64,000 bases of DNA, taken from contig NC_092671.1 of assembly GCF_964355755.1 (NCBI RefSeq), forward strand, positions 1,922,001 to 1,986,000, in the 5' to 3' direction. The notes below the pieces were generated by a model. That model ran no database searches and was not told where the DNA came from. It saw nothing but the letters and a program-made list of their open reading frames with translations. The position numbers and the translations under genes were made by a program. This document shows positions 8,355 to 46,207 of the stretch, in pieces. The DNA comes from Antedon mediterranea. Lineage: Eukaryota > Animalia > Echinodermata. The stretch's first letter is position 1; the number at the start of each line of letters is the position of its first letter.

Positions 8355-8391
8355 GCACTGATGAAGGGCTAGTGTTGCCCGAAAGCTTTGC
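8355..8391 (+). ncRNA. Minimal type I hammerhead ribozyme (Penelope-like element pLTR type)
   Basis: GCA-CTGATGA-A-GGGC(TAGTGTT)GCCC-GAAA-GCTT-TGC: complete catalytic core, stem II, palindromic AAGCTT stem III, 3-bp stem I. Confidence 0.75.
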
Positions 8392-13954: not shown

Positions 13955-16900
13955 ATGGGTATTATGTGTTGTTGCTACGTAAAAAAGAATGATGATTATG
14001 AGTCGTTGGACCCAAAGTCGGCAGAGTCTCCAGCTGAGCACCACAAGTATGGTACGTTAGAATCCGGTGGGTCGGCCAGACCACCTGAAACCAAACGCTA
14101 TCAATACCCTAAATCACCACTTAGACAAAAGTTTAGTTCGGATTCAGAACAGAGGTCAGTTAGACATGTCAGAGTTCATGTGTCGTCGTCTGATTCTGAT
14201 GAAAGTGACGATGATTCACCACCACCAATACGTGCTTATTCAAGTGCCCCAGCAAAAACCGATAAGCAGAAGAATGCGGCACCAATTACCAAAGAACACG
14301 CCCCAGTTGTTGCAAGCCCGTCTATCACGATTGAAGGTGAAGAAGAAGGATCCCCGAAGACTGTAGCTAGTGGCTTAGCCAGCATCTTCAAGCCTGAAGA
14401 TTCAGCAGTGTCGGAAGGAACTAAAACAGCTGAAGGAACTCGTGTAGATGCCGAAGGTGCCTCAGCTGCTGAGTCTACTGATCCTGAAGATTCTACCGGA
14501 GGACATTCCAATGTCTCTGGTAACCAGAATGGCAGCCTGGACAGCTTAAATGGCAGTGAGAAGAAGACTAAGAAGTCCAAGTCAATGGTTAGGAAGGTTG
14601 GATCGTCAATGAAGCGGGCTAGTAGAAAAGCAAGCAAATCAATGCAGAAAGGAATGGCTAAGATGTTGCACCCTAACAAGAGTAGAGACAGCACTGAAAC
14701 TGACGGTAAGAATTAAGATACTTAAATCAATACTTAATTAAAGAGGTATTGTCCTTCAAAAACATGAAAAATGAAGATTAATAAAATCAGATTTTAAATA
14801 GGCCATTTTGCAGTTTTAATAACAATTTAAGTATTTTTTGCTTTAAATTACATTTTCAGGCAATTATTTTAAATCCAGTTTTTGGTCAAAGTGAATAACT
14901 ATTAATGTGACATTAAAATGGCATATTAAAACAATTTTTTTTAGTTTAGGGGGACAATATATCTTTACGTCAATTCACCAAAAATCTTCTAGAGTCGACC
15001 TGTTTCGTAATTGAGCATTGAGCAGAAAATGTGTTTTGTTAAATAATTATTAAATAATTATGTCACTACTCGCACATGAGCCTGATAGTTAAATCTAAAA
15101 CAAGAAACACAACGATGAAAAAAGTATCACTTTCTACTGAAATATTGCATTATTTTAAAAAACAGATTGTCTGATCTCTCATAATATTTTAACCATAAAT
15201 TTATTATTATATTTCATTCCAATTTATATTTTTTATTCAATGCTGAAGTTATTTAGTCCAATACGTGATATTAAAATTCTTTCCGTCTTAGAGGTTGTGT
15301 AATAAAAGTTAGCAAAGACAGTAATGCCTAGTAGAGATTAAAAAGCACTTTACCCCGTAATCCTCAAAATGAGGTGTCACGTTTAAATTCTAATTACATC
15401 ACACACTTAGATCAAATATAAATTTTCGAACTTGAAAACAATATAATATTAATGAGTCTATAAATCTACAATCACAACACAATAAGAAGATTTGACTGAC
15501 CATGGGTGACTTGACTGACCGTGGGTGACTTGACAGAGGGCCAAGATTTGACTGACCATGGGTGACTTTGACTGACCATGGGTAATTTTCCAATGACTAT
15601 GGACTGACCAAGATTTGACTGTGGACCTTGTGTGACTTGACTGACCATGGGTAACTTGACTGACCAAGACTTGACTGATTATGTGTGACTTGACTGACCA
15701 AGACTTTACTGACCAAGACTTTACTGACCAACAATGAATTCATTTATTCTACAGTATTAATGTGTTATAGTGGCAAGTAACTTTAAATACCTAAATACTG
15801 CGTTCAAATCCAACTTTTTTACGAGGCAATGAAGCGTGGGAACTAAACTTCCAGAAATATTTATATAACCTTATAATAAATTTAAACTACAGTATCACTT
15901 TCTGTTTAGATTTCAATTTGAAAAATTTGCAATATAATAAGTTTTAACTAACAATATTTAATATATTTAGCAGTTTCTCATCTTTACTCGTCGGGATAGG
16001 CTCCATCTTATCAAAGAATCATTGATGACCTCTCTTGGACCTGATTGTGACCTCTGATCAATAAATAACTACATTTCCTGCAACAGAAGTGTCCTACTGT
16101 ACTTAGCCCAAAATTGCTAAATAAAAGAGAATGTGGTTTATGAGGAGATGCTTTAGAGTAACACATTTTGGGCTTATATTAGTGATATTTATATATTTAC
16201 AGTGAATAACAATGTGCATTAATACGTATTTAAAGATTTCTGATGATAATGATATTATTACTTAGTTATTCATTCTACAATTATTCAAACACATAATTCA
16301 CACATATCTGATTGTCTGTCGTTTGACATGGTGACAAACCTCGTTTGACATAACCTCAAAAGACTAGTATAATACTATTACTATACAATAGAGTTATTAC
16401 TATAATATGTTGATTACACTATTCTTTAATAATAAGCATTAAAAAGCTATTGTTTTTGAGACAATTAGATTTCCACATTTTAAACATTAAAAATGAAAAA
16501 AACCATGCAAGATACTAATTAACCATATGGTAAAATACAGTTTAAAGTGTGTATGTGTGTGTGTTTCATTTCACATAATGGTTTATAGGGAGTGGTCATA
16601 AACAGATGGTTTAAAAATATAAAAACTGTCATCTCATTAAAAAATATAATAATCTTGGCTTGGCCTGGGAGTGTGCTGTAGTCAAGTACCTTGTGGTAAA
16701 TTGTATATGATATTATTATTAGGCACTTTTTACAATACTGTATGTGAGTGGTGATTGTGAATAGCAGTTCTTGTTCTGATAAAGTCATCACCCAAAATGC
16801 TTTACTGTACATGACATATCCTTTTTTTCATTGATTAATCCTGCCACCAAAATTGTCAACATTTTGTTGTATAATTGGTAAAATGTTCCTAAATACACAG

Positions 16901-19900
16901 TTGCAAGTAAACAGTGCATGTGTCCGTATGTGTGTTCTTTAAGGGTCTATAGCGGCAAATCATCCGTTTATTTCAAAATAGACTTAAATACAGTATGTTT
17001 ATAATCAACTGCATTTCTGCAAAATTTAAATGGTTAATTTATTCACATTGTTATTTTTTTACAACAGAAAAAGGACCTAAAACAAAGTATTATCCACAAA
17101 TTGAAACTGAAATACTTTGAAACAATTTCATTAGGATCCAAATTGATGAATGTTTGCAATGTTTCTACAGATTACTGATTGGATCAGCAGAAAGTAACAT
17201 TTTACTCTTAAACTAAAACACTGTACTGTATCTTAATGAAACCAATCATAGTTTGGAAGATAAATGAAAAAGAATAATTCATGATTAATTTTAGTACACA
17301 GAAGCAGTCTTTTGTTATTAAATTATTTATGACAATGACTGTAGGATAAACTAGATCTTAATTAATTGTACAGAAATTCTGTACATTATTAAATATTAAT
17401 AGCCATAGAACGTACAGATCACCGTACTTCCAAATGTTTGTGGTCCCAACGCACGTACAATTGGTCGTAGTCCATCGCAGGTCCAAATTGCCGTCCACTA
17501 CAAGTCCAAATGGTCGGGCTCCACTGCATGTTTAAAGTATTAATTTGACCATTGGGTTACTGTAACTGATTACTAGGGAATTGTTATTAACTCTGTTATT
17601 ATCATCTACAGTTGAATCTGTGCGGACAACCATTGTAAGCTGATACTCCCCATTAAATGGATACGCATTTAAAAGCCTGTTCACACTTGTCTCCCTATCT
17701 ACCTACCGTAAAGCAGACACTTTCTCTAGACCTGTCTGTGTTAATAGCGTTTATCATAGATGGTATAGCAACTTTTTTTTGTATCTACTGTACTATAAGC
17801 CCCACCTCTTGAGAGCACGGGCTATTGTTAGTTTATCCAGGTAAGCTAGGCACAAATAGACTTATGACATTTTTGTACTCGGTATGATCTTTAAACTGAC
17901 TTTTTAATCTGTATGATATTATACTCTAGCTATAGTAATATAATAGTTCTATGTCTCATTTATAAAATATGTATTAGATCTAGATTGATTTGAATTTTAC
18001 GCACATTCAAAAAAAAAAATTTCATAGAAAAATGGGATTGGTAGTTATTCACGTCCTGTTATTTATAATCAACTTGAAGTTTTTATATAATAAATAATTG
18101 TAATACACAAAATACAGTAAGCAAGGTCAATTGTATGTATAAAAGGTCAACACTCCTTATTTTCATAAGTGATATAAAGTAAGCATTCAAGTATAGATAA
18201 TAAATATAATGAATCAGTGAATTCAAACAAGCAAATGAAAATAGACACCTGTAAATAGACACCTGTAAATATCTGTAAACATAACAAGTTCTAGTATTTG
18301 TTGTTATGTTTAGAAAAGGATATTTTAAAAGTACTTTCAACTCAAAATAGATCACAATTATTTCTCTCAAACCTCCTCTGACAAAGTAAAATGCACTTGT
18401 AAATGCTTATTGATAATTAAATTGTTTAAATACTAACTTTTTGTTTTTATTTTTTATTTAGATTTTCATTTTCATATAAAATTCCCAAGAGTGCTATGAA
18501 TATGAATCAAGATATTTAATTATTTTTTACAATTATTAAAATAGCATCTATTTCTCTATTCGTTATTTGTGTTATGTGTAAATGATTATTATATAAATTA
18601 TGGTGGATTAAAATATGACGATTGCAGAAATCAATTTGATTTCAACTCGCATAGATAAATCTGTATTAATTGAACGATAGAATGGATTACAAATGATAGT
18701 ACTGTAATAATTTAAGTATGCAATTTGGCATGGACTGCTAGTGCCGAGTATATACTTAAGGAAATCTGTCTAAGGGGGATCTGATCTAAAGGCAAGGTTT
18801 ATAAGAATGTTTTACATAACACATTCACTATTGATAATAATCAAATCTTTAATAATGGAGGCTCAAACAGTATGTGTTCTTTACGAGGTCGTATAGAATT
18901 TTAATGCAAAATTAAAGATTATGATAAAAGTAATGATGAACATTAGAATAGAAGAAGCTGGTTAAAGATTTATTTTCCCCAAAAATAATGTTTTCACTTA
19001 TAATATAAGAAAACAAAGAAATCCAATGTCTGAAAAACAATTTGACTATTTTAAGATTGCCTTTTGCAATTTGATATCTTTTGTTTTTGTTGTTTTATTA
19101 TCTTAATTATGCCAAGCAAAACAAATTTCCATTTTAAAGTGGACCAATGTCTTGAATCAATCGATGCAATGTTTTTTCAAATTCAATAACTATACTGTAT
19201 GTGACATTGAAATATTAAAATATATATCTTTAAAGAAGTTACTATGAAATAGCAACAGCTTTTAATACTACTATACAACAAAAAGGTTTGAATAATTTAG
19301 GTAGAAATGAGATCATCATCGGTCTAATCAGAACTAAATAATTTCTAGAAACCAAACCTTTATGAGGTTAATTAAAATTAATGTTGAAAGATAGCGTTTT
19401 CTGGCAACAAAAAAAAGTTGGTTTGTTCACAACAATATCACTGCTGATGCTCATAAGAACAGCAATCTTCTTCCACGTTACTATTTCCTACCAAATAATA
19501 ATAATAATAATATAGAAATAATAACATTTATATAATATACCCTTTAAAAAAATGTTATAATGCAAATTTCAACCTTTTACATAGGTTAGGCTTATGACGC
19601 CCTAAAGCTCTGTCTACACTATCAAACTTTATGTGACAAAAAATAGTCCATATGGAAATGATGATGTCATATCACTACAATATTTGAGCACATCACCTTT
19701 TTTTGTCAAACTAGTTTGATAGTGTAGACAGAGCTTAAGATACAATACGTGTAATGTAGCAATATTAGCAACATTTATATAATTTACTCTTCTAAAAATG
19801 TTATAATGCAAATTTCAACCTTCTTATTTTTTGACATAAATTTAGTCTTATGACTTAAGAAGATAATTAAGAGAAAATACGTGCAATATAGCAATAGTAT

Positions 19901-22900
19901 CACTTTCTATATGATTGTATAATTTTATTATACATTTCAAGGATTGTATTTGTTTCAATTTTTTATATTACTATAATAATATGATGAAATATGAGTCTAG
20001 TAATAATATTAATCCTTACAGTGGCTAATGAGGCTTTACGTACAAGAGACACATGGCAATTGAAAACTATTCCTTTACATCGTCTTGTTTTGTGTCAAAG
20101 TTTGGCGATACAAATATACAATAATGTGGTTTTTTTTTAAGCTTGGGTACAGGCATTAATTTTCATTTCATTGACATTTTTATTCCTAAACAATAAAAAA
20201 ACCAAATAATATATATAGCAATAAAATAGGAAAATGGAATGGGATACAAAATAAGCACAGTATGCTTTAAATGTGTAACCCTAAACAATTACTGTAAGAA
20301 TACAGTGTGTATACCACGTATAAACAGTTCTGAAAGGAACTGTTGATTTTGCTTGATGTTTTGATCAATATGCTTCAGGAGTGAGCATACCATATGTGAT
20401 GTACCACAAACTTTATATCAACATATTTGATTTCGCCATGCAAACCTTCAAACAATATAGAAATCCTGATGAAGAAGTATGAATTTATCTTAAAATTGTC
20501 AGGTTAAATACAGAATTTTTGAAAATTTTACCATATCTGGGGACACTTGTACACAAGAATGGGGTTGTACACTAGAATGGGGTTGTACACTACAGTGTGA
20601 ACTCCCCTACTGGTAAGAAAGCGTTTATTTTCAAGAAAACTGCAACAAAAATGTTCCAAAATTATGACAAATGGGGGAAATAAATTTGTTGCTTAAATCT
20701 ACTGTACTTTGAAAGAAAGATATTACTTTTTCTGAAATCAACTGTTACAATTATTGCAGTGCAATTATAACATATTAAAGTGCGGCAAGATTTATTTAAA
20801 TTGCTGTCTGTTCTTGTAAAGTGCAGAGAACTGATCTTGAATGCATCTCAAGTCCATTATGTCAGTCATTAGGTTTGACCTTTGACCCAAAAAAGATTTC
20901 AGTTCTTGCATCTTTAAATTGAGTAAAACGTTACTTGTTAATTTTCTTTATAAGATGTGACAATTTTTATTTTAAAGGCAAGTGTAACAAAAATGTCAAT
21001 GATGAATTTTTTAAACCAAATATAAATAATATGATAAATGATTTATGATGGCTATACAAATGTATTCATACCTTTAAATATGATATAGAAATAAATATTC
21101 CAAGTATAAATATAGGGGCAGTCCAATAGTTTTTAGATAGGGTACTAACCTTACCACAACATCAGTACCAAAAGTTCATGAATGTAATTTTACCCACTTT
21201 CAAACACTTACTATAGCCAAAACCTTGTATTAAACTTTTCCACCCAGTCAAATTTGAACACAGTAGCCACCCAAGAAATCTCTGAGTACCTTACATCTAA
21301 TTTAATTGACATGTCGTTCTTAGGTCGTAGGTCGTGTGTGTGTCTTAAAGTGAAAGCTACCTACTGTTTTTTCTCTCCCGCCCCTTCTCTCTGAAGGACA
21401 CTCAAGACTTGTGGATCCATGTACATTATATAATTAACTCAGTATGATTCATTACTTACTGTATAGGTCTTAATATAATCATTTCATTTCTTTATTTTCA
21501 CAATACTGGCATTTTAAAACAAAAATTAAGATTCTTTCTTTATTTCCATTTATCATACACAATCATAAACATACATAAATAATCATAGTACAAAGAGAAA
21601 AAAAAAAAATGGATTGATTTATTTTTTTAACTGTGTTAAACTAGAAGGCATATTATCATATTATAGTATTATCAATTGTACAGCGCTTTTAAAAGCGCTA
21701 TATAAATCCAAATTAAATTAAATAAAAAAATATTGTAAGAAATTTAATAAAATCTTTTCTCTATAAGTATAATAAGATCTTTATACTTTCATTACAAGAG
21801 TCTAAACATTGGAATTGACATTCATTTTGAATATGTTATTGAGCATTTTAATTACGCAAATGGTAAATTATCAAGTAGTATGTATACATAACTATGATAC
21901 ACAACACAATACTTCTATTTTTAGTATGCAGATTAGATGTGCTGTAGTACACAATCTGTGACTGAAGGATTTTGGCCGCATTATCATCATATTCTGACTT
22001 TGTTATTTTATTGTATATTTCTTCCGCTTTTTTATTAATTGCAGACAAAAGCAATGCACAACACAAAGGCCAACAAGACAGTGATGATGATGAAACGGAG
22101 TGGAGTCGAGGTAATTAAACAAACCTATTTATGTTTACAGTACGTGACCACGGACATGTGTTCATAAACAAAGTGTTGATTAATACTACTGTATATGTAT
22201 TGTTTGTAGGTGTTCATCAACACTCAACATTCCTGTCAGGGCTCGCAGAATCCTAAAATATTTGGTTGCCCTTCGGGCAAGTAGGTTTTGGATTTTGGTT
22301 GCCCTCATCATTTTTTTACTTGCCCACTATTTTAGCTTAATTTTAACGTTTTATACCGCGACTGCACCGCGAAAAAACGTCGGTAAAAAACGACTATGCT
22401 TAATACACTGTGGTGTTTTTTTCGATGGATTTTAAAGTAGTGAAAACAATTTTTCAAATTTTTTCAATTACACAGTGATGTAGGCCGATCTTTTAAGAAC
22501 ATTTTACAGTAATTTATTTTCTCATACGATCCTCCGTACAAGAGTTGCGATTGTTTAATTAACATGGTGTCAGGCCAAAATTAAAAAATATTTTAATAAC
22601 TAGGCCAAAATTTAAAAATAGCTTGTTTCCGGTTGAGCGCCCGGGTGGAATTTTTTTCAAAAAAAAAAAATTCTACCCGCAAACATTTTTGGGGGAATTT
22701 CCCCTATTCATCAGATTGCGTAGTAGTAGTAGTAGGAGAGGACTGTCTACATCTTTTTGTATTTCATTATATATAAATATTACGTGTATTTACGATCCAT
22801 ATAAATAATAATTATTAAGGTACGATGTTTAGCGTTCACAGTTGTTTCGTTTAGTTTCAAACAATGCGATCAAAAAAAGGCATGTGAAGCCAGGCCCAAC

Positions 22901-25900
22901 GGGTAAAGACCCTAATACAACAGCAAGCACTTAGCAGCACTAAGGCGCGGACGGAGAACACAGGTTACAAAAACAATTTGTTTGTAGGCCTTAACTACAA
23001 CCATGGATTAAAGAATAGAAGGATATGCATCGACGTGAGATCAAGGGTTCCTTGACTCTCGCCGACAGACCGCGGACCGCCCACAATGTTACAGTTTAAT
23101 TAACCGCATGGTAACAACGAAACGGTCGCGTGCCTAATATATTGTTTACTGCACATGTGCAACGACATTTAACCTTGTTGGCTACTACGCTTCTTTCGCG
23201 CGTTCTTTGGTGGCATGATGTTTGTAGATGGTCAACTATTGACTATGTTGGTTTCTGCCGCGATTGATCTACGCTAATGATTTTTTTATGATGATTAAAG
23301 TAGCATTTTATGACCTGTAGTAGCCCTACATCTGAGACAATAACTATTAGTTGTCTCATTTGTTGTAAAATTACAAAATCAGCAAGAATGCTAGCCTAGC
23401 TAGGCCCAGGCCTTGTACTAACTAGGCTAAACTGGGCTAGTAAACCCTATGATTTGCCGACATTGATACTGCCTAGGTAGGCCTAGGCTAATCTTAAATA
23501 CTCACCGTTGTCTTACTTCTTGTGTGAATAATAATAATAGGTAGGCCTACTTCGTTTGTTCGTGATCAAGTTTGCCCTGCGTGTACTTTTCAAAACGACC
23601 GCTAGGTAACGAATCGCAACTATACATAGCCAGCCAATCCCGGATCAGGGATCGCTGTTTTCATTCAATTAGGCCCGGTGATTGGATGTGATGTGGATGA
23701 CATAACCACTAGCCAATCACCAGGCACTACAGTTTAAATATAATCACATCGATAATTAAGGAGATTTATGAAGAAACCACTGCTTAGCCATATATTAAAA
23801 AACACGATTGTTGTATGTCTGAACACCGGCCACGCTAACAACATACATGGTCAAATGCATAATTTAATATTCTATAGATTAACGCAATTTTTAATGACAG
23901 AAGATGGCAGGCAAATAATGATAATTCAAATATAAAAATGGCATATTTTATTAATATTACCAACTACCTAAAATTACCAGTCGTAAGAAAGTGAACTTTT
24001 CGTAGTCCGATTGTGATGAAACTAAAACAGAATTATTCAGCAATATATGTTTGTTATCAATTAATCATCGACGCAGACATGTCAATAGAACATTCAGACT
24101 GCGCATACGATTTCTACATGGTTACGTTTTGGTCTCAAAAAATGTAACAGTTGATTCGCAGCGTTTTACAGAGGGCCGCGGTTAGAGACACGGAGTTCAA
24201 TGAACGTGTTTGTTTGATTGGCAGCAGTGCTTTAGTATAGGCAAGCGCGTTGTAAAATCGTTTGATGTCACCGTCGATGCATATCCTTCTATTCTTTAAT
24301 CCATGCTACAACTATTCATACACAGAGTGTTAACCACGGTAAAAAATCAAGCCAATGACATTATGTTGTAGAATATAAATTATTGTTATTTTCCGAGTTT
24401 CGATTTCTGAAGCTTTTTTGTTAGTATAATCCATATTCATAAGAATTCAAAACACGGACGGACGCCGACCCCTCTCTCTCTCTCTGTTTAGCCTTCTGCA
24501 CGTGTATTGTGGACTATACCATTTCCTTGAGTTCGGTAAAAACGCGTTTGTTAATTTAGTGTACGACGTCGTTAAACAAGATTTTTCGATGATCTGTCGG
24601 CTGGATTATTGAGGTGGGTGCGATAAAATATAAATATAATATACTTCCAACGATCTTCGGGTTGAGGTACCGGTTTAACTTTAGTACTAAAAGTTGACAC
24701 CCCTAATTTTACACGTATAATGGAATGGACTACACCATGCAGGAACGCACATGGTATTTTCATATCAGAGGGTGCGTGTACGTCAAAAGGAATTGTTTTT
24801 CCAACGACCGATCCTTCGTACTCACACGTACGACGACGTCGTGTGAAATTTCTTATCAGAGGGTGCGTGTGCGTCAAATGGAATTGTTTTCCCAATGTGT
24901 ATTGAATCGCGTGTGTTTGTTGATCGGATCGGCGCGGCGGGAGGATAGGCTGGCTAGGACAAGGAGTGCGTGTAATTTTTTTTTCAACGAAGGCGGCTAG
25001 CTCGATTATTGAGGCGGGGGTGGTGCGACTTTAATACTTTCAGTGACCTCCGATCGAGGAACGTTTTTAGCTTTATTATTAAAAGTGTACACCCCTGTAT
25101 TTTAATGTACTATCTATACCATTATTTACCACGCACGGCGGCCGGGACGATATTGTTTTGGTTATATAAATATGTTCGATGTTTTCTCTAAATGCGTTTA
25201 GGGAAATCCCCTTGCAACGAAGACAGGCGATAGTTTTGCGTCTCGTCCGATATTCTTGACATTATTTTCTATCTACTTCAGTGGTTTTTATTGTGGTAAA
25301 ACTCGGGAAGGGCACTCACGGCCAACACAAAAAAAAGGGCAGGCCAGTAGTGGCCGTGGGTGCTATTAATTTTCGAGGGCATTGAGGCCAACTGGGAGGG
25401 CACCGACGGCACTGGCCGCGGTAAAATTCGAGGGCTGTGGTGTCCTGAAATCCCTTGAAAACGCTATGTTATTTCTGTTGGTTACGCTTCGTTGCACGGC
25501 ATTGTTTGTCATCGATCGAAGATGTGTTCCGTTTCGTGAATGAATTCACGTGGGTTTACTTTGGGAGCAAAAACGTTTTGCTTCTATTGTGCAATGAAAT
25601 TCCGAAATCAAGCTATTTTGCGATATTTAAAATGTAGTGGCCTAGACATGGCACTAATTATCTTACAATTATTTAATAGATATATCTAAAATATTGCCTA
25701 TAGAAATGTAGGCCTCCTAGGCCTAAAAAGTTTAAACAAAGTACTTATGAAGGTGATGAGCTTGTAACGCGTTGAAATCATAGGGAAGAAAAAAAAAACA
25801 AACATCAACTGACGTCCGTCTACGTGACGTGAAACAATACGCATGCGTATAGCAAAAAACCTCACAGCAGCTGCCGTACGTAGTAGGAGCACATGGGTAT

Positions 25901-31900: not shown

Positions 31901-34900
31901 AAATACACTTTGGTAGCACATTCTCAATGCTAAGTCATTACTAATCTTTATTCTTTGGTATATCATAAGAAATTACACTTAAATTACTCCTTGTGTTTAA
32001 AAAAGCAACATGCCTTACAAGTTTCCTACATGTGTTTTCTTTTAATAAAATCATAAGGTGTAGATGACCTATGTGCAAATGTACACGTTGTCGATTTTCC
32101 ACTAGATGATTTAGTCAGCTTATACACATGCCCATTCATTCTTCCAAACACCTCTCTACGCATGCATGCAAGCTGACGCTTTCAATTCGCACAAACAAAT
32201 TTTTCAAGTGGAATATTGTCTTAAGAGCGCCCCCTTAATGCTTGTATTTTAGAATTGCACATCAAGATATAAAGTTTTCTAGTTTGTCCCTATAACATTT
32301 TAAGTGATAAATTATGTATTTTGCATTAAAATAACACTTCATATACATTTTAAACATACATAGATGTAACATAATTCTGTGTAATATAAACTGCAATGCA
32401 ATGTCACTATTTACACTATCATCATCGCTGTCGTTGTTGTCATCATAGTACTATTTTATTAAGTGTTGTCTTTATTTATTTCAAGTTATCCATGTCAAGT
32501 CAAAGGGCCCCAGAGGGCCAATAAAACCCCAAAAAACAAAGTTAAAATATAAAGACAATACAAAACCCATAATGGCAACCTAGCAACCACACCTAACTAT
32601 TCCAGGCACCTCAAAATGTTTCAAATTTGATTCCAGTTTTAAAGCAAAATATTTTATATAACAATGACTTTTTACTGAAAGGAATAAATAAATAAAATAT
32701 ATCAATATACTATAAATCTTCATTAATTCACAACAATTTTCCTGTGATAGATGTCATGGTAAATTAAAAAAACGAAAAGAAAAAAAAATTGAATGACTTC
32801 ATAAATATTAAATTATAGTTGAATTTTATAAAGCAAATTTGTCTTGCCATTGTTGATATCAAATGTCCTCTCATGGGTTTATTTAAGTCTCATTACAACA
32901 TCATAACAAATGCAATACATCATATATGTTTATGGAAATTTATTCAAATAATATAATCAGTTTTCAATTTAAACACTCCCTAGTTGTAGATTAAAAATAT
33001 TAGTATTTTAAATTTAAATTGAAAAAGAAGTTATTTATGGTTATTGTTGCGCATACATAATTTTGAAAACTGGTTACGGCATGTTATGGCATAAAAGGCA
33101 TTGGTTCAAGACGTGTGCCATGTTACCATAAGATACTTTACTCTCATTTTACCATGTTGCCATAGTATCTAAAGCAAGGTACTTTACTTTCACAATTAAA
33201 AAAGAGTAGGGGCCTGGGGCCGGATTTATCAAACTTGCTTAGCAAAAAAATCGTCTTAACTTTGCCCTAAATCCTTGATTTTGCTTAAGTCAGATTTATC
33301 AATATATCTAAGCAAAAAAATTTGCTTAATTTTGTCTTAAATCTAAGACGAACAACACCCTGCCTTAAGATGAAAAATTTCTTTCTCTATTTCAAATAAT
33401 AAAAATATGGAGATAAAATGTTATAGCGCCACCATCGCTAAGAGAAAAAAGCTAATGCGCACACGTAAGCAAGGATTTTTCGTCTTAAGACATAATTTGC
33501 TGCCCTCTAGAGTTTAATTTTGTGCATGTGCAAAGTAAAATTTACCTAAAACAATTTTTCTGCTAAGACATTGCTAAGACGGTTTGATAAATAAGATTAA
33601 GTTATTTGCTTAAGCACTTCTTAAATATTTCAGCTTAAGCAAAAATATAAGCAAATATTGATAAATGCCAACCCTATACTCTGAGAGACGGTCTTGTACT
33701 AAAGAGGTCGTCACCCAGTATTAATGTTTTTAATGATTTTGAATATAAACACAATATTATTTTGTTAATTTCAATGAGTGGAATTACCACTGCAATTTCT
33801 AAACACAATTTTTTTGGTGAAATCTTATTTTTTAGAAAGAATGTTGGAGCGAGAGAAACAATGGAGTAAAATAGAAGCTGAGGCAGAAAGTAAAGAAGAT
33901 GTACAGAAGACAAGTGCTATTGGCCAGGCATTAAATGTAAGTCACCAGATAGATGACTGTTCTTAGCGGAATTTGACAACATAATTTACGTAAAAGGAAA
34001 TAAAGTATGATTAAGAATATCTCATTTTTCGTTGTTATGCAACCCTCCTAATTATTACTAAAAGTAGCATAACAACGAAACATTCATTTGTACTTACTTT
34101 TAATTAAATTTGTTTCTTTTTTTTCTCTTGCTTTTTCAAAACACTCCTCTTGTGTGAGCGCCCTCTATTATCTGGTTTTATTTTATTGTAACTTGTCAAT
34201 GTTCAGGTGCTCATAAGTGCTAATTCTGTTTAATAATAAAATAGTAAAAAGATAATAGGATTAAATCATGTACTTGTGATGTATGAATAATGTATATCAG
34301 GATATAGGATTCAGTAGATTAGCATACTAATGTTAAATTCATTAGATAGATAGTACGCTGTATGTATTAAAGCAACCTGTTAGGCATGAGTTTGCAATCG
34401 TTAAATTTTCTTTTTTCTTTTGCCGCCAAAATATTAGTAATCTTCTAATATTATTGATTGATTAAGTGTTGTTTTTACCAAACATGATTTCTTTTCACTT
34501 AGTGATGCTGTTTACTAACCCTGTGGGATGTTTTTTAATACTCTTGCATTAAATTTGTTCAAATACCAAGGTTATAACTTTAAAAAACAAGTGGACCCAT
34601 CACTCAAGTAATTGTATTAACTATCACTGTAGATATTCCATATTTCCATGTGTGGTGTAACACTAACAGGGTATATACATGATAAATAGATGATGATTGA
34701 TGTTCCAATAAATTATTTTTTTCAAAGACAATATTATTTTTTTTTAAACTTCTTAGGTTCTTACAACACTTATGAATGTATTAAATATTTGACAGATAAA
34801 ACATCTTGTTTACATAAAATGGACATGTTGAAACATCTGCTCTGCTCATTATACAGAATAATAAATATAATGCAAAAGATATGTCTAGAAGAGAGAGTTC

Positions 34901-37236: not shown

Positions 37237-37384
37237 ACCTGGCAAGTGAACATTCAACTGGAGGATGGAGGAGGTGCCTTAAATGGATGGTTGGCATCCA
37301 GCATACCTTATTGGTAGATAGATATAATGGAGCCACTCATAAATATTGTAATGTACATGCCTTAATGGTAGATTTTGTAAAAGA

Positions 37385-37810
37385 CATATTGGTAGTTTGT
37401 GAAGGTTATGCCCCATGAAGGTTCCACTTCAATGGTAGATGATGGGACACGCTCTTACTGGTGGATCCGATTTAGAAGTCCCACGTCATTGGTAGATGTT
37501 AAGACACACTCTTACTGGTGGATCCGATTGTGAAGGTCCCACCGCATTGGGTACTTTTAGGTCATGTTTCTGGCAGATCCAATTGTGAATGTTCCACCTC
37601 ATTGGTATAGTTAAGACACGCTCTTACTGGCGGATCCGATTGTGAAGGTCCCACCTCATTGATAGTTGTTAGGACATACTCTCTCTAGTGGATCCGATAA
37701 TGAAGGTCCCACCTTTTTGGAAGATGTTATGATACCTTTCTGGCGGATCCGGTTGAGAAGGTCCCACCTCATTGGTATAGTTGTTAGAACACGCTCTTAC
37801 TGGTGGATTA
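37385..37810. repeat. ~55-63-bp tandem repeat in the 3'UTR of the + strand R-SNARE gene
   Basis: CTCTTACTGGTGGATCCGATTGTGAAGGTCCCACCTCATTGGTAG, about 7 copies. Confidence 0.85.
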
Positions 37811-38106
37811 GTAGTTGTTGCTGGTATGTGTAATTGTCATGCCTTGTAATGGTAACACTTGATAAATGTTATGTTTGTCTGACAGTTGTATGCCTTGTGT
37901 TTAATGCCTTCAGTGGTGAAGATTGATGTGGATTGTTATTGGTTTCACTCTGATCTTGGGAGACATGCCTTACTGGTTGGTGCCGAGTGCTAGGTGCTAC
38001 TTGTCAACATTGTTCCAGCATTATGTTATACCTGATTCACACTTACTGAGTTACACACGCAAATTTGTCACTGGGTAATAATAAATGTTTAAATACTGTG
38101 TATTGG

Positions 38107-38450
38107 AGCTGTCTACACTATTACACTTTATGAACAAGATGATGTCATATTATACCATATTTGGGCACATCATACTTATTTGATAGTGTAGACAGAGCTT
38201 TACTCATTGGAAAAATATGCTTACACACAAGTGTACCAAGGCAACAATTTGTTACACGATCACACTTTATGGACGGGATGATGTCATATTATAGTTTGGT
38301 AGTGTAGACAGAGCTTTACTCATTGGAAAGATATGCTTACATGTAAAAGCCTGTACAGATTACCTTCTCGTTTTAGGATTTTAAATTCATTAATCACAGA
38401 AAAATAGCTTTCACACGGGTGTACCGAGGCAACAATTTGTTACACGATTT
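38107..38450. mobile_element. MITE family A copy plus local partial duplication, in the probable 3'UTR
   Basis: Copy at 38107-38202; partial re-copy with flank TTACTCATTGGAAA at ~38260-38340; GTGTACC.AGGCAACAATTTGTTACACGAT occurs twice. Confidence 0.7.
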
Positions 38451-39117
38451 CTGTACGTGTGAATCCGGTATAACTGTTATGGACAAGATAGGACACTCTT
38501 TGTGTGCATATAATATTTAAAAGGCCTTAAACACAGGAGGAGATATGTAGTGCCTAAAGTACTGTATAGTGTACTGCTTTTCTGTGTTCTTCCATGCACA
38601 TATTGTGTATCTAGATAGGCGTGTTTCTTAATTTTCATTGGATTGTGTAAGGACATATATTTTTACACCATATTGTATTGTAGATAGGCAAATTACCATG
38701 GTATATATGTATATTATTACAGCACAACAGTGGCAACATTTTCCTTAATTTCTCTTAATGTTTTTGTGTTTAAAAAAAAAAATATATAAAAAGAGGAGCA
38801 GTTATATCTGAAATAAACTTCCTGGAGATAAAACAGCACAAATTTAGAGGAAAATGTGATGGTTTGCAGCAGTTTGGTGCTTACCATTGCTTCTTGTACA
38901 CTCTCCCTAGATCAAATTGTCATTCAGCAGGTTTTCATTGGTGCAATATTTAGCAGTGCCTTTTGAAAATTTATTTAAAAGATGTTTTGTTTAAACTACT
39001 ATGTTGATTGATAGATTGCATCCAATCAAATTTCTTTATGTAATTATGTCCATATTTGGGTACTCAGTGGCCATATCAGTGACTATTTGGATAGTATACA
39101 TTACCTTAGTCTTTCAC

Positions 39118-39212
39118 TAATTGGTTGATAGCTGTGATTGGTCCATAGCTGTGATTAGTTCATAGCTGTGATTGGTTGATAGTTGTGATTGGTTGATAGC
39201 TGTGATTGGTTG
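39118..39212. repeat. 17-bp tandem repeat (GATAGCTGTGATTGGTT)
   Basis: About 5.5 units. Confidence 0.85.
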
Positions 39213-40549
39213 GAAGTGGTGCTAGAAAAGTTATCCAGTGGCAATGTATATATTATTAGTTTATCTTGTTCTGTTTGTCACATTTTCTATAATGTCACCT
39301 GTTTATTTAAGTCTTATCTGTTATATTTTAATTCTAAATGCAATGTTGTCTATATATATATACCACCTTAAATAAGAAATGCAATTATTTAAAGTAATTG
39401 AATAATATTACTGTAAATTAGTTTTCAAATATTATATTTGTAAAATTCTGTTACAAAATGTCAAGAAACTGTCCTTAATATTGTAAAATCCTTTTTTTTT
39501 AATCATTGTGCAATTTTTATTTTTATTTCTTTTAAAATATTTAAATAAAACAATCTATTAATAACACTAACCCGAAACATTGTACTCTATATCCTTCTAA
39601 ACCACACTGATGATATTCGGTTGGACCCTTTAGCCATTCAGCAGAACAGTAAACACACATGAAAATTCGGTAGTTAGACCCATTACTTTGCGATGGCTGA
39701 ATGCCGCACGTGTTTATTTATTTATGGCTATGAATTCACTAACTAGGTGGTTGCTTTATTTATTTATTTTCTTTCACATCCAACAGTGATAAATCCGCCA
39801 CTTACAGAATAGTAATGCAAGCAGTGTTGGTAATATAATGTTGTGTATATTCGTGTGATATGAAAATACAAACAGGGTCTAAAGTACTGAGCTCAATTTA
39901 ATGCTTTACATAGTGCACTAACAGAGTTGAGGTAACCAAGTAGTTACAACTATAACACAGAAAGATTCTTGATAAGAACAACTCCAAATCCACTCAGCTG
40001 TAATTGAGTACATGGTTGATATATACTAGGGTGGATAAGGTGATCTAGAAAGGTACTGGCTACTACATAATGCTAAGGCTTAGTAAAAGTAACTCCTTAA
40101 CAGCAAAATAAACATAGGACTACTCGCCTTTAGTGCAGAATATGTGACTTCAGTGTTTGTATAAATGTATATATATATTGTAATCTGAAGATAATAATTA
40201 ACTGTATTCAATATTATTATACAAAAGAAAATCAAACTTGCATTTTAAGCGAGTGTGACATTTTAAGCCAATTGATTTCTAAGTTGGTCCACTTAAGTTA
40301 CCTTAAAGAGTACCTCCGAGTTTAACATTTTTGATGTTTATTTTGAATTTTAAACCTTTGCAACACATATCTCACTTATTTTTTAGTCAGTGGTGAAGCA
40401 GAACAAGCATTGTGTTGCAAGATAAGTGCTATATCATCAATGTTGTACACTGAAATGGTTTTTATTTTAAAATAAACAATAGAAATGTTAAACCTGGACC
40501 TACCCTTTAAGAGAGACAGATTTGTCATAAGGGAATTTATATTTACAGT

Positions 40550-40635
40550 AACTTTAATTCGCACTTTCAAATATGTACTAATTACTTATCTCCTAACAAA
40601 TAATTAGTACATATTTGAAAGTGCGAATTAAAGTT
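40550..40635. repeat. Perfect inverted repeat, 35-bp arms with 16-bp spacer
   Basis: AACTTTAATTCGCACTTTCAAATATGTACTAATTA and its exact reverse complement. Confidence 0.9.
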
Positions 40636-40873
40636 TTAACAGTGGGTAATGTATTCGCAGTATCTTTACTTTAAAGGACCAGTTTCTGTTAAAGGTGTAT
40701 TGTTTGAATGTTAATATAGCAATGTTAATTTATATATTTAGAATATATACAAATATAGTATATATTTTGTATTTGAAGTTGTAGATACATATTTTTTGTC
40801 AAAGTGTATGTGTAAATTGATCGTATATTAATTTGAGATGCATTTTGTATCTGTGTAATAGAATTACAATATA

Positions 40874-41192
40874 CCCTCTATTTGGGCTTTCTCAATTTGA
40901 GTCATACATCTCCGTTTGAGTTCTACTCCATTTGAGTGGTCTTTCCCCATTCGAGTCATACATCTCCGTTTGAGTTCTTCTCCATTTGAGTGGTCTTTCT
41001 CCATTTGAGTCATACATCTCCGTTTGAGTTCTACTCCATTTGAGTGTTCTTTCCCCATTCGAGTCATACATCTCCGTTTGAGTTCTTCTCCATTTGAGTG
41101 GTCTTTCTCCATTTGAGTCATACATCTCTGTTTGAGTTCTACTCCATTTGAGTGGTCTTTTTCCATTTGAGTCATACATCTCCATTCGAGGG
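40874..41192. repeat. 60-bp tandem repeat (120-bp higher order) built from CCATTTGAGT subunits
   Basis: Five units; source of ORFs 40864-41175 and 40892-41206. Confidence 0.92.
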
Positions 41193-41879
41193 GTCAATGT
41201 CATCAACTAACTATGTGGCCTTGTCGTCCAATTACGTGGTTCCCTCAATTTATTGAGTGGTTTCCCTTTAATGGTTTCTCGCCATTCTTTCCTCAAACGT
41301 GATGCTGAAATGTTTTGTGTTGTGAAATAATCTTATTCCCACTTAGACGGTTCCAACTTGGGCGAAACGTAGGCGGGACGCAACTCAGTTGACCGCAAGT
41401 TATTTGTCAAATTACGTGGTTTGGCTGCGTTGCGTCAAAGTGGGAAACAAGTTTGATTAGTCCCACGTATAAGAAGCTAGCTTGTTGTATGTTAATTTTG
41501 TCCTCTCTCTATTATTATTATTAGATCGTCTTGTCGGCTTCTCAAACAGCAACTAACAAACACAAGTTTGTACTGTAATTGTACAAGCTGTTTTCCTGTC
41601 GATGTAACGTTATGATTTGAAATTGGCAATTTGCCGTAACATTACATCGACAGGAAAACAGACTTTAACGGTGTATAACCCAAGAGTATGTAAATCATAG
41701 TATATAATGTATTTATTATAAAAATTTATGTTTATTATTTTTAATGAAATATAAAATTGATATAACGAAATTGTTCAATAAAAACACAATATAAAAATAT
41801 AGGTCAGCTAAAACACTGTATTTGAGAAAAGAAATCCATTGTTCATGTTTTTTATTTGGTTTTTCAGGAATTTAAATTA

Positions 41880-43830
41880 CAGTACAGAAATCACCCAGAA
41901 TGTGACCTTTTTTAAATGCACACATGTGTATGTATATTGCCATAGAATAACCATATGGTGCCATAGGACCACTTCGTGTCAAAAAATACAAATGTCAAAA
42001 TTTGGTCATTTTTCGAGAAAATCCCTGTGCTATAGGGATTTTTTACAAAATCACCCAAAATATGACCTTTTTTAAATTCACTTAATATACACTAATATTG
42101 CTATATGTGCATGTATATTGCCATAGAATAACCAGATGGTGCCATAGGACCACTTTGTTTAAAAAATAAAAATGTCAACATTTTGTCATTTTTCCAGAAA
42201 ATCTATGTGCTATAGTATAGGGATTTTTTTACAAAAATCACCCAAAATATGATCTTTTTAAAATTCACTTAATATGCACTAATATTGCTATATGTGCATG
42301 TATATTGCCATAGAATAACCATATGTTGCCATAGGACCACTTTGTTTAAAAAATAAAAATGTCAAATGTTGTCATTTTTTCGAGAAAATCTATGTGCTAT
42401 AGTACAGGGATTTTATTTCTGGAATATTTAGAATTAAATACCCTGGAGAGATTATGTAAACACCGTAATGATATTATTATTGAATATTCTCCCTCTTAAA
42501 TTAATACTTAAAACTAAATAAAAATACAAGAAACAATGAAATGAAACAATATTTTAAACTTATTTTTAGTTACAAATCTATGTACACACTAAATATATAC
42601 AGAAATGTGGGAAATGTGATTGCTAGCAATGTATATACGGTAGTGTCTGTAGGCCTACAAAAACAATTTAAAAAATGCATTAATTATAATATATCATGTC
42701 TTAAAAGGTGTCTTTATTCTGTATAACATATATTTATATTTTTGTGTCAAAAGTGGTTACTGCAGAATCCATTATTCGACTCTGCGCATGTTTATTATAC
42801 TATAGTAACCATTTATGTCAAAAAATAAAAGGGTCGAAAATCGGCCATTTTTCGAACATTTCCATGTACAGGGATTTTTTCAAAAAAATTTCCAATTTTC
42901 CACTTGTTTATTTTTCGATAAAACTGGTTACTATGGCACAATTGACATGCGCAGAACCCATTATTAGCATCTGCGCATATTTATTATACTATACTGTAGT
43001 AACCATTTATGTCAAAAGTGGTTAATATAGCACAATTGACATGCGCAGAACCCATTATTCGACTCTGCGCATGTTTATTATACTATAGTAACCATTTATG
43101 TAAAAAAATAAAAGGGTCGAAAATCGGCCATTTTTTCAAAAATTTTTCATGTACTTGTACAGGGATTTTTTCAAAAAAAATGGCAAATTTTCGACCTTTT
43201 TATTTTTCGATAAAACTGGTTACTATAGCACAATTGACATGCGCAGAACCCATTATTCGCATCTGCGCATGTTTATTATGCTATAGTAACCATTTATGTC
43301 AGAAGTGGTTACTATAGCACAATAGACATGCGCAGAACCCATTATTCGACTCTGCACATGTTTATTATACTATAGTAACCATTTATGTCAAAAAATAAAA
43401 GGGTCGAAAATCGGTCATTTTTCGAAAATTTCCAGGTACTATAGTACAGGGATTTTTTGGCAAAAAAATGGCCAAATTCGACCTTTTTATTTTTCGATAA
43501 AATTGGTTACTATAGCACAATTTAAATGCGCAGAACCCATTATTCGCATCTGCGCATGTTTATTATACTATAGTAACCATTTATGTCAAAAGTGGTTACT
43601 ATAGCACAATTGACATGCGCAGAACCCATTATTCGACTCTGCGCATGTTTATTATACTATAGTAACCATTTATGTAAAAAAAATAAAAGGGTCGAAAAAA
43701 ATGCCATAGGACCACTTTGTTTAAAAAATAAAAATAACAAAATGTTGTCATTTTCCAGAAAATTCCTGTGCTATAGTACATGGATTTTTTTTTACAAAAT
43801 CCCCTAAAATATGACCTTTTTTAAATTCAC
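41880..43830. repeat. Composite satellite or transposon-derived array: ~180-bp repeats flanking an array of palindromic units
   Basis: AAATCACCCAAAATATGACC units at 41880-42420 and 43700-43830; seven ~88-bp hairpin units at 42745-43675. Confidence 0.85.
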
Positions 43831-44575
43831 CAGTTTTTATTTAATATAGTATTTATTATTATATATTATATAAACTTTATTTATTCACAGTAAAACTCAT
43901 TCAATCAACATTGTTTTTACACAAGTTCGTGATATTTCGTAATAAATGCCTATTAGAGTAGAAATAGGTTCGTAATTAACAACAATCTACGACTTCGATT
44001 TCGCAACAATCTACGACTTATATGACGTCATATGGTATGGAGTTAGACCTACCATTTTCATTTGTAAGTTGACAAAATATAAGTCCAGGTGACAACATGT
44101 GGTTTAAAAAAATCGAAATGGACGATGACTTGTATCAATGACGTAATGCTTAACCTACATAGGAGGCTAAGTCACAGGTCGTCGTCAATCGAAAGCTCAT
44201 TATGGCTTATGTCTCTTATTAATTTAAAAATAATATTTGACCTTTCTTTTCATATTCAGTAAACAGATCGAATTGACTCGTGCTCTAAGACTCCCTTTCG
44301 AATCATTTCCCTTTATTAATCCTTGCTATCATGTCCCACGTGGTTTATTTAAGCACATCAAACATGGTACTGGTAGCCAGTAGTGCGGAACTAGTAATCA
44401 AACTTCCTTGCTTCCACTATATCTCTCTCTCTAGCCTGTGATGCGCTTACTTCCTGATACGCGTACTTCCTGATACGCGTAGTCCGGCTTCCGTGTCTTG
44501 CACAGGATACATCACCACCTCCGTCCGGCGGGTAGCATTCATCATAGACAATTCGTCATCATTTTATATTCTATG

Positions 44576-46207
44576 TCACGTTTTCTTTTCCTTTTTTCTT
44601 TTCTTTGCAAGGTATTTCTGTTCCTCGAGTTCTGCTACTCTTCGCGCGTTTTCTGCAAAACTTAGCGCTTTTACATTTAGTTCGTCCGTTGTGTCTTGTA
44701 ATTTGCCTAGTTTTTCACCTCTTTCATGTACTTTCTAAAAGTAAAATATTGAAACATAATAATTTATAATAAGAGACTGTATTTATTATAAGCTATGTAT
44801 ATAATCATGGTTTTCCTATCTATATTTCTTGTTTGTTTTATACATCGTAAAATGATATAGCATTGTTATATACCAGCATTTATGCTTACACACAAATGTA
44901 AATGTCTTTAACTAAACAATGCGTTGGTATACACTGTTATAGTGTAGACAAACAGTAGGCCGCGCCTGCATAATAGTAGATGGCTACTGTAACAGTAAGC
45001 CTACTAGTACTACCGTGTATTTAATATTCATTTACCTCTAATGCCTCCAACACTACCTTACTCGTGACTTTAGCCTCTAAATCCTTAACTCTGTTCTCAG
45101 CTGAAAACAAAATATAAACAATATATTTTAATAGTTAATATAAGTTAATTTCTATTTCTAAGCGCCTTGTGACCATCTGCTGATTGTTGTGTCATCTGAC
45201 AACATTCACGTTACTATTTTATAGTTTCGTGACAGAGTTATAAGCGTTCGCGCCAATGGGACACGTTGCGTAACGGATGATTAACGGTTGATCAATCGAT
45301 CAATCGATTTATCAATATCTACCTACCTCTCTTTTGTTTCTCATTTTCACGTAACGTTGTGATATCTTGATAGGTCAACTTACTATGTTTCGACTGTTTT
45401 TCTAGATATAATAATAAATTGAAATATAATATTAATATCACAGAATAATAATATTATAGCAATGGGACTGGTTAAAATAATACTTTCAAAAGCAATAGTT
45501 TATAATATGATGTAAATTTCAAGTACTTTAGTGTTAAATAATATTTCATATATCATGATATATATCACAATTCTATAGTTAGCAGGCCTGCCTACGTGCA
45601 TTGTAAGGTTCACTAATTTCCTTCCTAGTTATATAAGTCAATTTCCCAGGTGGTATTGTACCTCTGAGAGAATTGGTACGAACTAATTATTTTCCGACAT
45701 GGTTATAAAACATCTAGTAATGCAACTCACAGATATTCTTTATTGACCGACTCACTAAAATAATGAATAGGCCTATATAATACGATTATGGGGAGGGGTC
45801 GAAAGAATGAGCAGAAAGAATTGGTTTAATATCTTAGTTGATAATAAAAGTGCGAAAAAAAACTTACCGGCTTTGTCGTCTTTCTGCCCCTTTTTATCAG
45901 TTTTAAAATTCTTCTTCAAAAGTTTTTTGAATTTATTCTTACTTTTCTTTCTCTTTGGTTCCGTTTTTTCCTCATTCTCGACTGTTTCGGTATTATCCGA
46001 CTGTGCTGGCGAAGCTGCTTCGACGGCAACGATCGGCGATGATCTACGTTGTTCAACGCACGTCGTTTCAGCTGTAGCTCCGTACGTCATCGGTCGTTCT
46101 TTTCCGATCATAAGCGGGTTTTCATACGTTTCGTCTTCTTTTGTAACACTTTTGCTAGGTTTTTCTATAGTATCCGATTCCGAATCGTTACTACAACAGC
46201 AACCCAT
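44576..46207 (-). CDS. Second N-terminally acylated, transmembrane-less R-SNARE protein, ~212 aa (paralogue of the + strand gene)
   Basis: Exons 45868-46207, 45327-45401, 45036-45100, 44576-44734 (phases 1,1,0). Starts MGCCCS; polybasic segment KRKKSKNKFKKLLKK; ends VVLEALEKVHERGEKLGKLQDTTDELNVKALSFAENARRVAELEEQKYLAKKRKKEKKT*. Confidence 0.82.

Follow-up and report, generated by a model that had tools for sequence, protein, structure and literature searches.

Two neighbouring genes of the crinoid Antedon mediterranea encode transmembrane-less R-SNAREs with a predicted N-terminal lipid tether and a SNARE exon likely derived from tomosyn

Ykt6 is a lipid-anchored R-SNARE without a transmembrane (TM) segment that carries a longin domain and C-terminal lipidated cysteines, and amisyn (STXBP6) has an N-terminal PH-like domain. 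Amisyn, a small TM-less R-SNARE competitor, is called vertebrate-specific in a title cited in PMC9715400, and tomosyn (STXBP5/5L; PDB 1URQ), which ends in a TM-less R-SNARE, is reported to have no membrane anchor (PMC8377282). Melia et al. (PMC2173141) report that a peptide of the C-terminal half of VAMP2 binds t-SNAREs reversibly and accelerates fusion, and envisage that a protein of this kind could control the membrane-proximal fusion switch; the peptide syb(49–96) stabilises the acceptor and is displaced by zippering (PMC5986196). At the opposite end of the protein, an acidic dileucine-type motif preceded by Gly2 and cysteines directs LAMTOR1/Ego1/Lam1 to the lysosome or vacuole (PMC5752196).

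The window considered here is a stretch of 64,000 nucleotides of Antedon mediterranea (contig NC_092671.1, positions 1,922,001 to 1,986,000), for which a preliminary description had proposed two convergent, paralogous genes encoding lipid-anchored, TM-less R-SNAREs. Gene A lies on the forward strand. Its exon 13908–14705 holds the ATG at 13955 (coding part 13955–14705), ends in phase 1 and encodes an MGIMCCC acylation motif, YxxPhi motifs, an acidic and Ser-rich disordered linker and, at about residues 203–238, a polybasic amphipathic helix. Coding exons 2 (22045–22110; 66 nt) and 3 (31440–31664; 225 nt, Ser/Pro-rich) are both of phase 1-1, the latter closing with an R-x-S-S-x-x-M-x-S-K-Y-A-R motif that is common to urchins; Anneissia isoform X2 is devoid of the segment matching exon 3. 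The penultimate exon (33836–33936; 101 nt, phase 1-0) encodes SNARE layers −7 to −2, the first four of them degenerate, and ends in SAIGQALN, while the last exon (37105–37236) supplies layers −1 to +8 with zero-layer R386, a basic tail and the stop, and no TM segment. Gene B, on the reverse strand, starts with MGCCCS in coding exon 1 (45868–46207), which also contains a YG motif, a disordered linker and a polybasic stretch and ends in phase 1; it continues through exon 2 (45327–45401; 75 nt, phase 1-1) and a penultimate exon with the N-terminal SNARE layers (45036–45100; 65 nt, phase 1-0) to a last exon (44576–44734) with layers −1 to +8, zero-layer R165, a Lys-rich tail and the stop, again with no TM segment. 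All seven coding introns of the two genes have GT-AG borders. The spliced frames are exactly the Antedon mediterranea proteins XP_071941742.1 (P0001; 424 aa) and XP_071941743.1 (P0004; 212 aa), both labelled 'uncharacterized' by NCBI. The motifs that had been cited for the two genes lie where they had been placed, and the last intron of each is indeed of phase 0 and three codons before ERG. Since in-frame stops precede both ATGs, no folded N-domain is added upstream.

Transcript evidence comes from a single run, X1, RNA-like by an automatic guess; as repeats dominated the tables of joints, its junctions were taken from where the contigs lie. The preliminary description had proposed that transcripts join the first exon to the SNARE exons. 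This is supported for gene B by a 1858-nt contig that lies on 46718–45868 and 44734–43867 with 140 letters between, equal to both middle exons (75 + 65). For gene A, a 1342-nt contig lies on 13906–14703 and is flanked by 149 letters upstream and 395 downstream, which fit a 5′ exon and exons 2–4 (2 + 66 + 225 + 101 + 1), and the last junction has indirect support only, from a contig whose start coincides with 37105 and which has 29 letters left unplaced. The 5′ exon, which would be non-coding, is placed at 9240–9389 (forward strand) from X1 and a donor site: besides the 149 letters ahead of 13906 there is an insertion at 9259 of equal depth (24.6), and the single AG|GTRAG donor within 9200–9500 follows 9389, in agreement with the 149 letters. 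A further contig (33908–34838) points to a possible read-through terminal exon (33937–34838) giving a SNARE-less isoform with a stop after 9 codons; its depth is 12.4, versus 23.3 for the contig starting at the SNARE exon, and it may be unspliced pre-mRNA.

Both last exons reach the curated cut-off of Pfam Synaptobrevin PF00957 (26.4 bits), with 27.0 and 26.4 bits. As to whole proteins, gene B scores 30.5 bits and gene A 23.3, under the cut-off, and the same holds across the family (30.5 and 35.6 bits in B type; 18.9–23.3 in A type), so that the R-SNARE match expected by the preliminary description stands for the last exons and the B proteins and fails for full-length A-type proteins. Synaptobrevin alone reaches the cut-off in the Pfam scan, with no other domain. 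The highest 19-residue hydropathy is 0.56 for gene A and 0.09 for gene B, in keeping with the claimed lack of a TM segment; across the family (9/9 proteins) it is at most 0.71, a C-terminal TM helix is absent, and the stop codon follows the zero-layer Arg by 36–47 residues. The absence of WD40, PH and longin domains from both proteins was likewise upheld by Pfam and the upstream stops and, for type A, by the disordered models. Two A-type models (pTM 0.23 and 0.21) contain neither a folded domain nor beta-structure, and a fold search with an A model returned no match at E ≤ 0.001.

The zero-layer Arg (ERG) is invariant and layers +1 to +8 are strictly apolar at 6–7 positions in all eight family proteins checked, resembling tomosyn and amisyn. 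Layers −7 to −4 are apolar at 0–1 of 4 positions in six A-type proteins, which thus fall short of an unbroken complete R-SNARE motif; the values are 4/4 in the tomosyn-like protein P0018 and in six of six tomosyn-like loci, and 3/4 in three amisyns. B-type proteins are strictly apolar here at 1/4 (Antedon) and 3/4 (Anneissia) positions. By these counts the SNARE motif of type B is nearer to complete than that of type A, the contrast in N-terminal layers being soft given the Antedon B value. Layers −6 to −4 of crinoid A carry charged residues, and urchin A-type proteins have a Pro at layer −2, with the helix of the AlphaFold model broken at 314–319; the intact layers of type A are only −3 to +8 in the crinoid and −1 to +8 in urchins. 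The crinoid A model shows one continuous helix (338–423), so that the N-terminal half of its SNARE might still zipper in a shifted register.

The position of the last intron points to tomosyn as the source of these exons. A search for tomosyn-like loci gave 407 pattern matches, of which 31 were confirmed (19 distinct DNA sequences); the pattern was derived from the family and favours similar sequences, and the loci may stem from few related animals. All 31 encode one tomosyn-type last exon, and in all 31 an AG acceptor lies three codons before ERG. One of them, compared with PDB, matched m-tomosyn best (34.4 bits, versus 20.4 for VAMP4). The penultimate exon is of phase 1-0 and ends in SEIGQAKR in ten of ten loci (SAIGQALN in gene A), and genes A and B share this phase. 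Because the intron before ERG is that of tomosyn, the SNARE exons of both genes likely derive from tomosyn's last exons, in a comparison confined to tomosyn-like loci. Amisyn fragments, frequent among the 44 matches of a representative search, show divergence ahead of GNSILH or past TAHK and continue without a break through ERG, which suggests that amisyn has no intron there.

Sequence similarity speaks less uniformly. Urchin 34-residue cores are identical to tomosyn cores at 18–20 of 34 positions, versus 14–17 for amisyn, and among the tomosyn, amisyn and other cores compared, tomosyn's is the nearest for Antedon A and the urchin members. The cores of type B show no such preference, with 10–14 of 34 positions identical to tomosyn and 11–15 of 34 to amisyn. 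A 34-column tree gave no resolution, with the family grouped in 0% of bootstrap trees. VAMP4, which shares PF00957 with the family, was the top PDB match in four of five family searches, in which it and rat tomosyn scored, respectively, 22.2 and 19.7, 34.4 and 27.3, 18.0 and 13.0, and 25.1 and 25.0 bits; for the last exon of gene B it came third, after yeast Snc1 entries, and tomosyn was not among the matches listed. Unlike VAMP4 and the brevins, the family lacks a C-terminal TM helix, and its long N-terminus is disordered and carries a Cys cluster. It also differs from tomosyn, being without WD40 propellers and the KKWY(Q)F-type tail, with a predicted N-terminal lipid anchor and, in type A, broken N-half layers; from amisyn, in the absence of a PH-like domain (no Pfam match in A or B; A-type models unfolded); and from Ykt6, the lipid-anchored R-SNARE without a TM segment, in the lack of a longin domain and C-terminal cysteines and in a weak PDB score (14 bits).

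Anneissia carries both gene types, and sea urchins carry the longer A type. Outside the SNARE motif, crinoid A and urchin proteins align with a score that none of 500 shuffles reaches, in each of three pairs; as judged from sequence, type A is conserved between the two groups. In three urchin species, gene models include SNARE-less X2 isoforms that end just before the SNARE exon. The relationship between A and B is less evident. Outside the SNARE motif their alignment does not rise above chance (108 and 130 of 500 shuffles equally high; hhalign probability 2.8%), an A-type pre-SNARE profile gives no significant match to B (230 and 247 of 500 shuffles as high), and the N-terminal similarity vanishes without the first eight residues (over four pairs, between 20 and 301 of 500 shuffles as high). 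The claimed paralogy thus found no backing in these alignments, and the shared phase-0 intron, being likely inherited from tomosyn, is no proof by itself that one gene arose by duplication of the other. The two genes nonetheless lie next to each other and match in exon layout, which makes it likely that they are paralogues. A likeness of the KYAR motif to the pre-SNARE motif of P0033 and P0044 found no support (scores −1.4 and 5.4, within the shuffle range of B proteins).

At the N-terminus, the Met-Gly start with a Cys triplet needs to be qualified. The triplet is invariant in all nine aligned family proteins, and Gly2, present in crinoids and Lytechinus, is missing from the S. purpuratus cluster, whose proteins start with MSCLCCC or MACLCCC; P0006, as called, has five residues ahead of the Gly2/Cys motif. 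Predicted myristoylation is therefore not constant across the family. Similarly, the shared YE motif and lysine-rich tail hold for the crinoid proteins, and the urchin proteins are without both. The disordered tether and N-terminal Cys cluster were recovered in both Antedon proteins, clustered cysteines occur in the family at the N-terminus and nowhere near the C-terminus, and crinoid A and urchins have both kept the polybasic amphipathic helix and the KYAR motif ahead of the SNARE. In urchin proteins the Cys cluster is followed by E-P-x-S-L-V, a dileucine-like motif absent from crinoid proteins. The arrangement recalls LAMTOR1/Ego1/Lam1 by analogy only; four N-terminal fragments gave no LAMTOR match in Pfam.

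We consider the chances about even that the family consists of TM-less R-SNAREs, likely born from tomosyn, which a predicted Cys-palmitoyl anchor holds to the membrane and which likely occupy the R-slot of Q-SNAREs without driving fusion. The Cys cluster would be S-palmitoylated, and N-myristoylated where Gly2 exists; the polybasic amphipathic helix would bind acidic lipids, and the YxxPhi and acidic-dileucine-like motifs may select the membrane. On a tether of 150–350 residues, the SNARE helix could bind a syntaxin/SNAP-25-type acceptor in cis and, being unanchored C-terminally, would be unable to pull membranes together. As type A retains only membrane-proximal layers, it would bind the C-terminal half of the groove reversibly, keep the N-terminal nucleation site free and give way to a zippering VAMP, as a placeholder or primer, and alternative last exons without SNARE may serve as an off-switch. 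That such a tethered, tomosyn-born C-terminal half-SNARE pre-structures Q-SNARE acceptors, is displaced by VAMP, speeds fusion and is switched off by splicing is a reading that we regard as rather unlikely. It draws on vC-pep and the syb(49–96) of the stabilised (Delta-N) acceptor, which cover nearly the same span as the intact A-type layers (PMC2173141, PMC5986196); those are laboratory peptides, whereas type A is a natural protein, predicted to be membrane-tethered and splice-regulated. Because the N-terminal half of the A-type SNARE is broken, the term tomosyn-like decoy would suit type B better; with its nearly complete motif, type B would more likely act as a fusion brake in the manner of tomosyn.

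If both types were plain full-length decoys in the manner of tomosyn and amisyn, as in the model of the preliminary description, they would zipper along the whole groove into stable dead-end complexes and only inhibit. Tomosyn ancestry, the almost intact layers of Anneissia B, the continuous helix modelled for crinoid A and the mode of action of tomosyn (PMC8377282) and amisyn (PMC9715400) agree with this; the charged layers of crinoid A and the urchin Pro with its modelled helix break do not, and isolated C-half peptides stimulate fusion and do not block it (PMC2173141). We regard this reading as rather unlikely. Productive R-SNAREs or tethers resembling Ykt6, pairing in trans with Q-SNAREs while a basic tail grips lipids, appear highly unlikely: the Lys-rich tails of the crinoid proteins and the closeness to VAMP4 in PDB searches would fit, but urchin tails are not rich in Lys, and the sole cysteine clusters are N-terminal, placing the anchor 150–350 disordered residues away and at the wrong end of the helix. 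We also think it quite unlikely that the acylated, polybasic disordered part carries the main function, working like GAP-43 and MARCKS, with the SNARE remnant co-opted as a coiled coil for a partner other than a Q-SNARE. The annotated SNARE-less urchin isoforms, the decayed SNARE N-half and the helix and KYAR motif kept in crinoid A and urchins speak for it; yet in all members conservation is highest across layers −1 to +8 and at the zero-layer Arg, the pattern expected of four-helix-bundle packing.

The preliminary description had not recognised this architecture, and our literature search found no description of a lipid-tethered, TM-less, disordered R-SNARE. The family would represent a second design, one without a name that crinoids share with urchins and that the database names 'nucleolin-like' and 'uncharacterized' conceal. 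Joining tomosyn SNARE exons to an acylated, disordered tether is probably one way in which new fusion regulators arise. Sea-urchin eggs provide a classic cell-free exocytosis assay, and the urchin A-type orthologue opens this cortical-granule system to the half-SNARE idea. Should the placeholder reading be true, type A would match the sort of protein foreseen by Melia et al. (PMC2173141). Among minor observations, 34 pattern matches in viral contigs yielded no confirmed family member, and weak Nef matches (E 0.18 or worse) were taken as chance. C3orf49 (PF28264) was absent from Pfam scans of family proteins and no joint mention of it with SNAREs was found in the literature; its ESM Atlas score of 0.81, with 164 shared features, is a lead only.

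Two genes converge in this region, A on the forward and B on the reverse strand, and their products are named only 'uncharacterized' in the databases. P0001 (XP_071941742.1, 424 aa, Antedon mediterranea) matched exon 1 of gene A at 100%, and P0004 (XP_071941743.1, 212 aa), whose accession directly follows, matched the last exon of gene B. Mapped back to the window, the proteins delineate five coding exons in A and four in B, with GT-AG borders at all seven introns, and both are exact translations of the spliced frames; the joining of exon 1 to the SNARE exons proposed in the preliminary description is thus borne out. In both genes, exon 1 ends in a polybasic stretch followed by a phase-1 GTAAG donor, the penultimate exon is of phase 1-0 and the last exon starts three codons before ERG, the tripeptide holding the zero-layer Arg, as had been claimed. 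The last exons reach their stops without a hydrophobic segment, in keeping with the reported lack of a transmembrane (TM) segment. A domain supplied by upstream exons, which would have overturned the proposed architecture, was also looked for; in-frame stops precede both start codons, implying that no N-terminal domain is added upstream.

Five sequencing runs were available, none of them RNA on record, and the RNA status of run X1 is a guess. Contigs of four of the five were placed on 27500–47400 and those of X1 alone on 7500–27300. The splice readings are contig coordinates of a single run, not tabulated joints. The X1 contigs behave like spliced RNA. One of 1858 nt comprises 46718–45868 and 44734–43867 separated by 140 letters, the summed length of the two middle exons of gene B, and a contig of run X2 crosses the same introns without a break (43702–46470). 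Another X1 contig, of 1342 nt, covers 13906–14703, with 149 letters before, which fit a non-coding exon at 9240–9389, and 395 after, which fit exons 2–4 of gene A. A third, at a depth of 23.3 and with 29 letters unplaced, begins exactly at 37105, the first base of the gene A SNARE exon. A fourth (33908–34838, depth 12.4) reads from exon 4 on into the intron; the gene A path thus appears to fork after exon 4. X1 contigs also occupy 37237–42072, ∼5 kb of sequence downstream of the gene A stop over which their depth climbs from 23 to 164; they may represent an extended 3′ UTR, a separate transcript or repeats lying between the two genes. Within intron 2 of gene A, X1 contigs in a more GC-rich stretch at 23752–26960 reach depths of 249–435 (gene A: 24.6); its three long ORFs had no Pfam match, and it is probably a transcribed repeat. 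Short upstream ATG frames, eight in the gene B leader (46208–46718, reverse strand) and two in that of gene A (9240–13954, forward strand), might exert translational control.

Both types recur in the crinoid Anneissia japonica (type A, P0002 and P0003; type B, P0005, 50% identical to P0004), and near-consecutive accessions, on contigs of identical length, suggest that A and B adjoin there as in Antedon. Profile searches recovered urchin type A proteins from Logan (P0006), Lytechinus pictus, L. variegatus and Strongylocentrotus purpuratus (LOC593646), P0006 being 75–80% identical to named urchin proteins. With the SNARE excluded, none of 500 shuffles scored as high as the crinoid A–urchin alignment in any of three pairs; both sides have the cluster of cysteines, YG[AT], the polybasic helix and, ahead of the SNARE, a KYAR motif. 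Logan contigs of 1.4–1.8 kb encode whole proteins of 363–399 aa and are presumably spliced transcripts. No member outside echinoderms emerged from a representative search with a four-sequence crinoid profile (44 matches listed) or from word-indexed, length-limited searches, the last scoring 7992 candidates; the family is so far limited to echinoderms.

The paralogy of A and B, asserted in the preliminary description, is likely, since the genes are neighbours in two crinoids and since both proteins start MG..CCC, carry a YG motif and are encoded by exons of matching layout, but it finds no echo in similarity outside the SNARE, where 108 and 130 of 500 shuffles scored as high (33 and 16 of 500 for B versus urchin) and hhalign aligned CCC alone. 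The SNARE cores share 10–12 of 34 residues.

AlphaFold models of crinoid A and the S. purpuratus protein contain no folded domain. They show a polybasic helix of low confidence (∼217–247) and a C-terminal helix, to which the urchin adds short low-confidence helices, and nothing more. The polybasic helix is amphipathic (as-high shuffles, 1–4 of 2000 for type A and 22–50 for type B, optimistic figures since the best window was pre-chosen). Packing layers were assigned from VAMP2 offsets. That for layer −3, Met46, agrees with PMC5986196. Every member retains intact layers from +1 to +8. At layers −7 to −4, type A has 0–1 apolar residues of four and type B one (Antedon) or three (Anneissia), as against 3–4 in tomosyn and amisyn. 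In urchins a Pro occupies layer −2, where the modelled helix is broken; the crinoid A model retains a single long helix, which counsels caution about a broken N-terminal half. Of the proposed myristoyl/palmitoyl anchor, the Cys triplet is invariant, but the S. purpuratus cluster has Ser or Ala in place of Gly2, making predicted palmitoylation the likelier family constant.

The family is likely derived from tomosyn, judging from sequence and exon structure. A pattern built from the family matched metagenome contigs 407 times, and 31 of these loci were confirmed; in all 31 (19 distinct DNA sequences) an AG acceptor lies three codons before ERG and the last exon ends K[KR]WYQ[FLI]. The one locus tested against the PDB matched m-tomosyn best (34.4 bits; VAMP4, 20.4), and its upstream exons match the tomosyn-like P0018, itself closest to m-tomosyn. 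The penultimate exon was of phase 1-0 in 10 of 10 loci examined, ending SEIGQAKR (SAIGQALN in gene A). Urchin X2 isoforms, which lack the SNARE, end at this same point, just ahead of the SNARE exon, suggesting an urchin intron at that site; 13 hand-picked vertebrate amisyn fragments suggest none there. The preceding exon starts in phase 2 in tomosyn loci versus phase 1 in A and B, so any transfer involved the last two exons at most. Some results speak against descent from tomosyn: VAMP4 equalled or exceeded rat tomosyn in PDB searches with family queries, the gene B core is no closer to tomosyn than to amisyn, and a 34-column SNARE-core tree (34 rows, among them 7 of the 15 tomosyn cores but no VAMP sequence) gave no resolution.

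By their defining domains, tomosyn, amisyn (compared through a review, PMC9715400), Ykt6 and VAMP exclude this family, which is a real, conserved and apparently undescribed variant of TM-less R-SNAREs, with a putative regulator function. Searches of the open full-text literature found no description of a TM-less R-SNARE on an acylated disordered tether and no mention of LOC593646; SNARE catalogues may nonetheless list such proteins without comment. The proteins probably work like the tomosyn/amisyn class. Held at a membrane by its predicted lipid anchor and basic helix, such a protein would place its distal helix in the R slot of a Q-SNARE acceptor, where it would be unable to pull membranes together. 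An occupant of the C-terminal half would act otherwise than a full decoy: for the C-half peptide of VAMP2, reversible binding and faster fusion are reported, whereas the N-half peptide is inhibitory (PMC2173141), and syb(49–96) stabilises the acceptor and is displaced during zippering (PMC5986196). Read against these peptides, type A may be a placeholder or primer that can be displaced, with type B acting as a more tomosyn-like brake, a view we hold about as probable as all alternatives together. The YxxPhi motifs of type A and, in urchins, a dileucine-like motif of acidic type resemble the lysosomal anchor described for LAMTOR1/Ego1/Lam1 (PMC5752196), but profile matching of N-terminal fragments to LAMTOR gave no match.

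P0007, P0025 and P0029, which join ankyrin-like repeats to a C-terminal TM-less R-SNARE (P0025 is so named by its source), are another tomosyn-type architecture. An ESM Atlas query with P0004 returned the chordate C3orf49 cluster (PF28264) with a score of 0.81, no more than a lead to a vertebrate protein that might contain a SNARE-like helix. Pfam places a Nephrocystin-3 (NPHP3) gene at 44–7714 (reverse strand), its first ORF ∼1.5 kb from the inferred gene A 5′ exon, head to head, and the two may have a common promoter. A nuclear hormone receptor, recognised by Pfam through its ligand-binding domain, has exons at 50201–52204 (reverse strand) and may be thyroid-receptor-like. Tandem repeat arrays at 27283–27764 and 40864–41206 cause spurious long ORFs.
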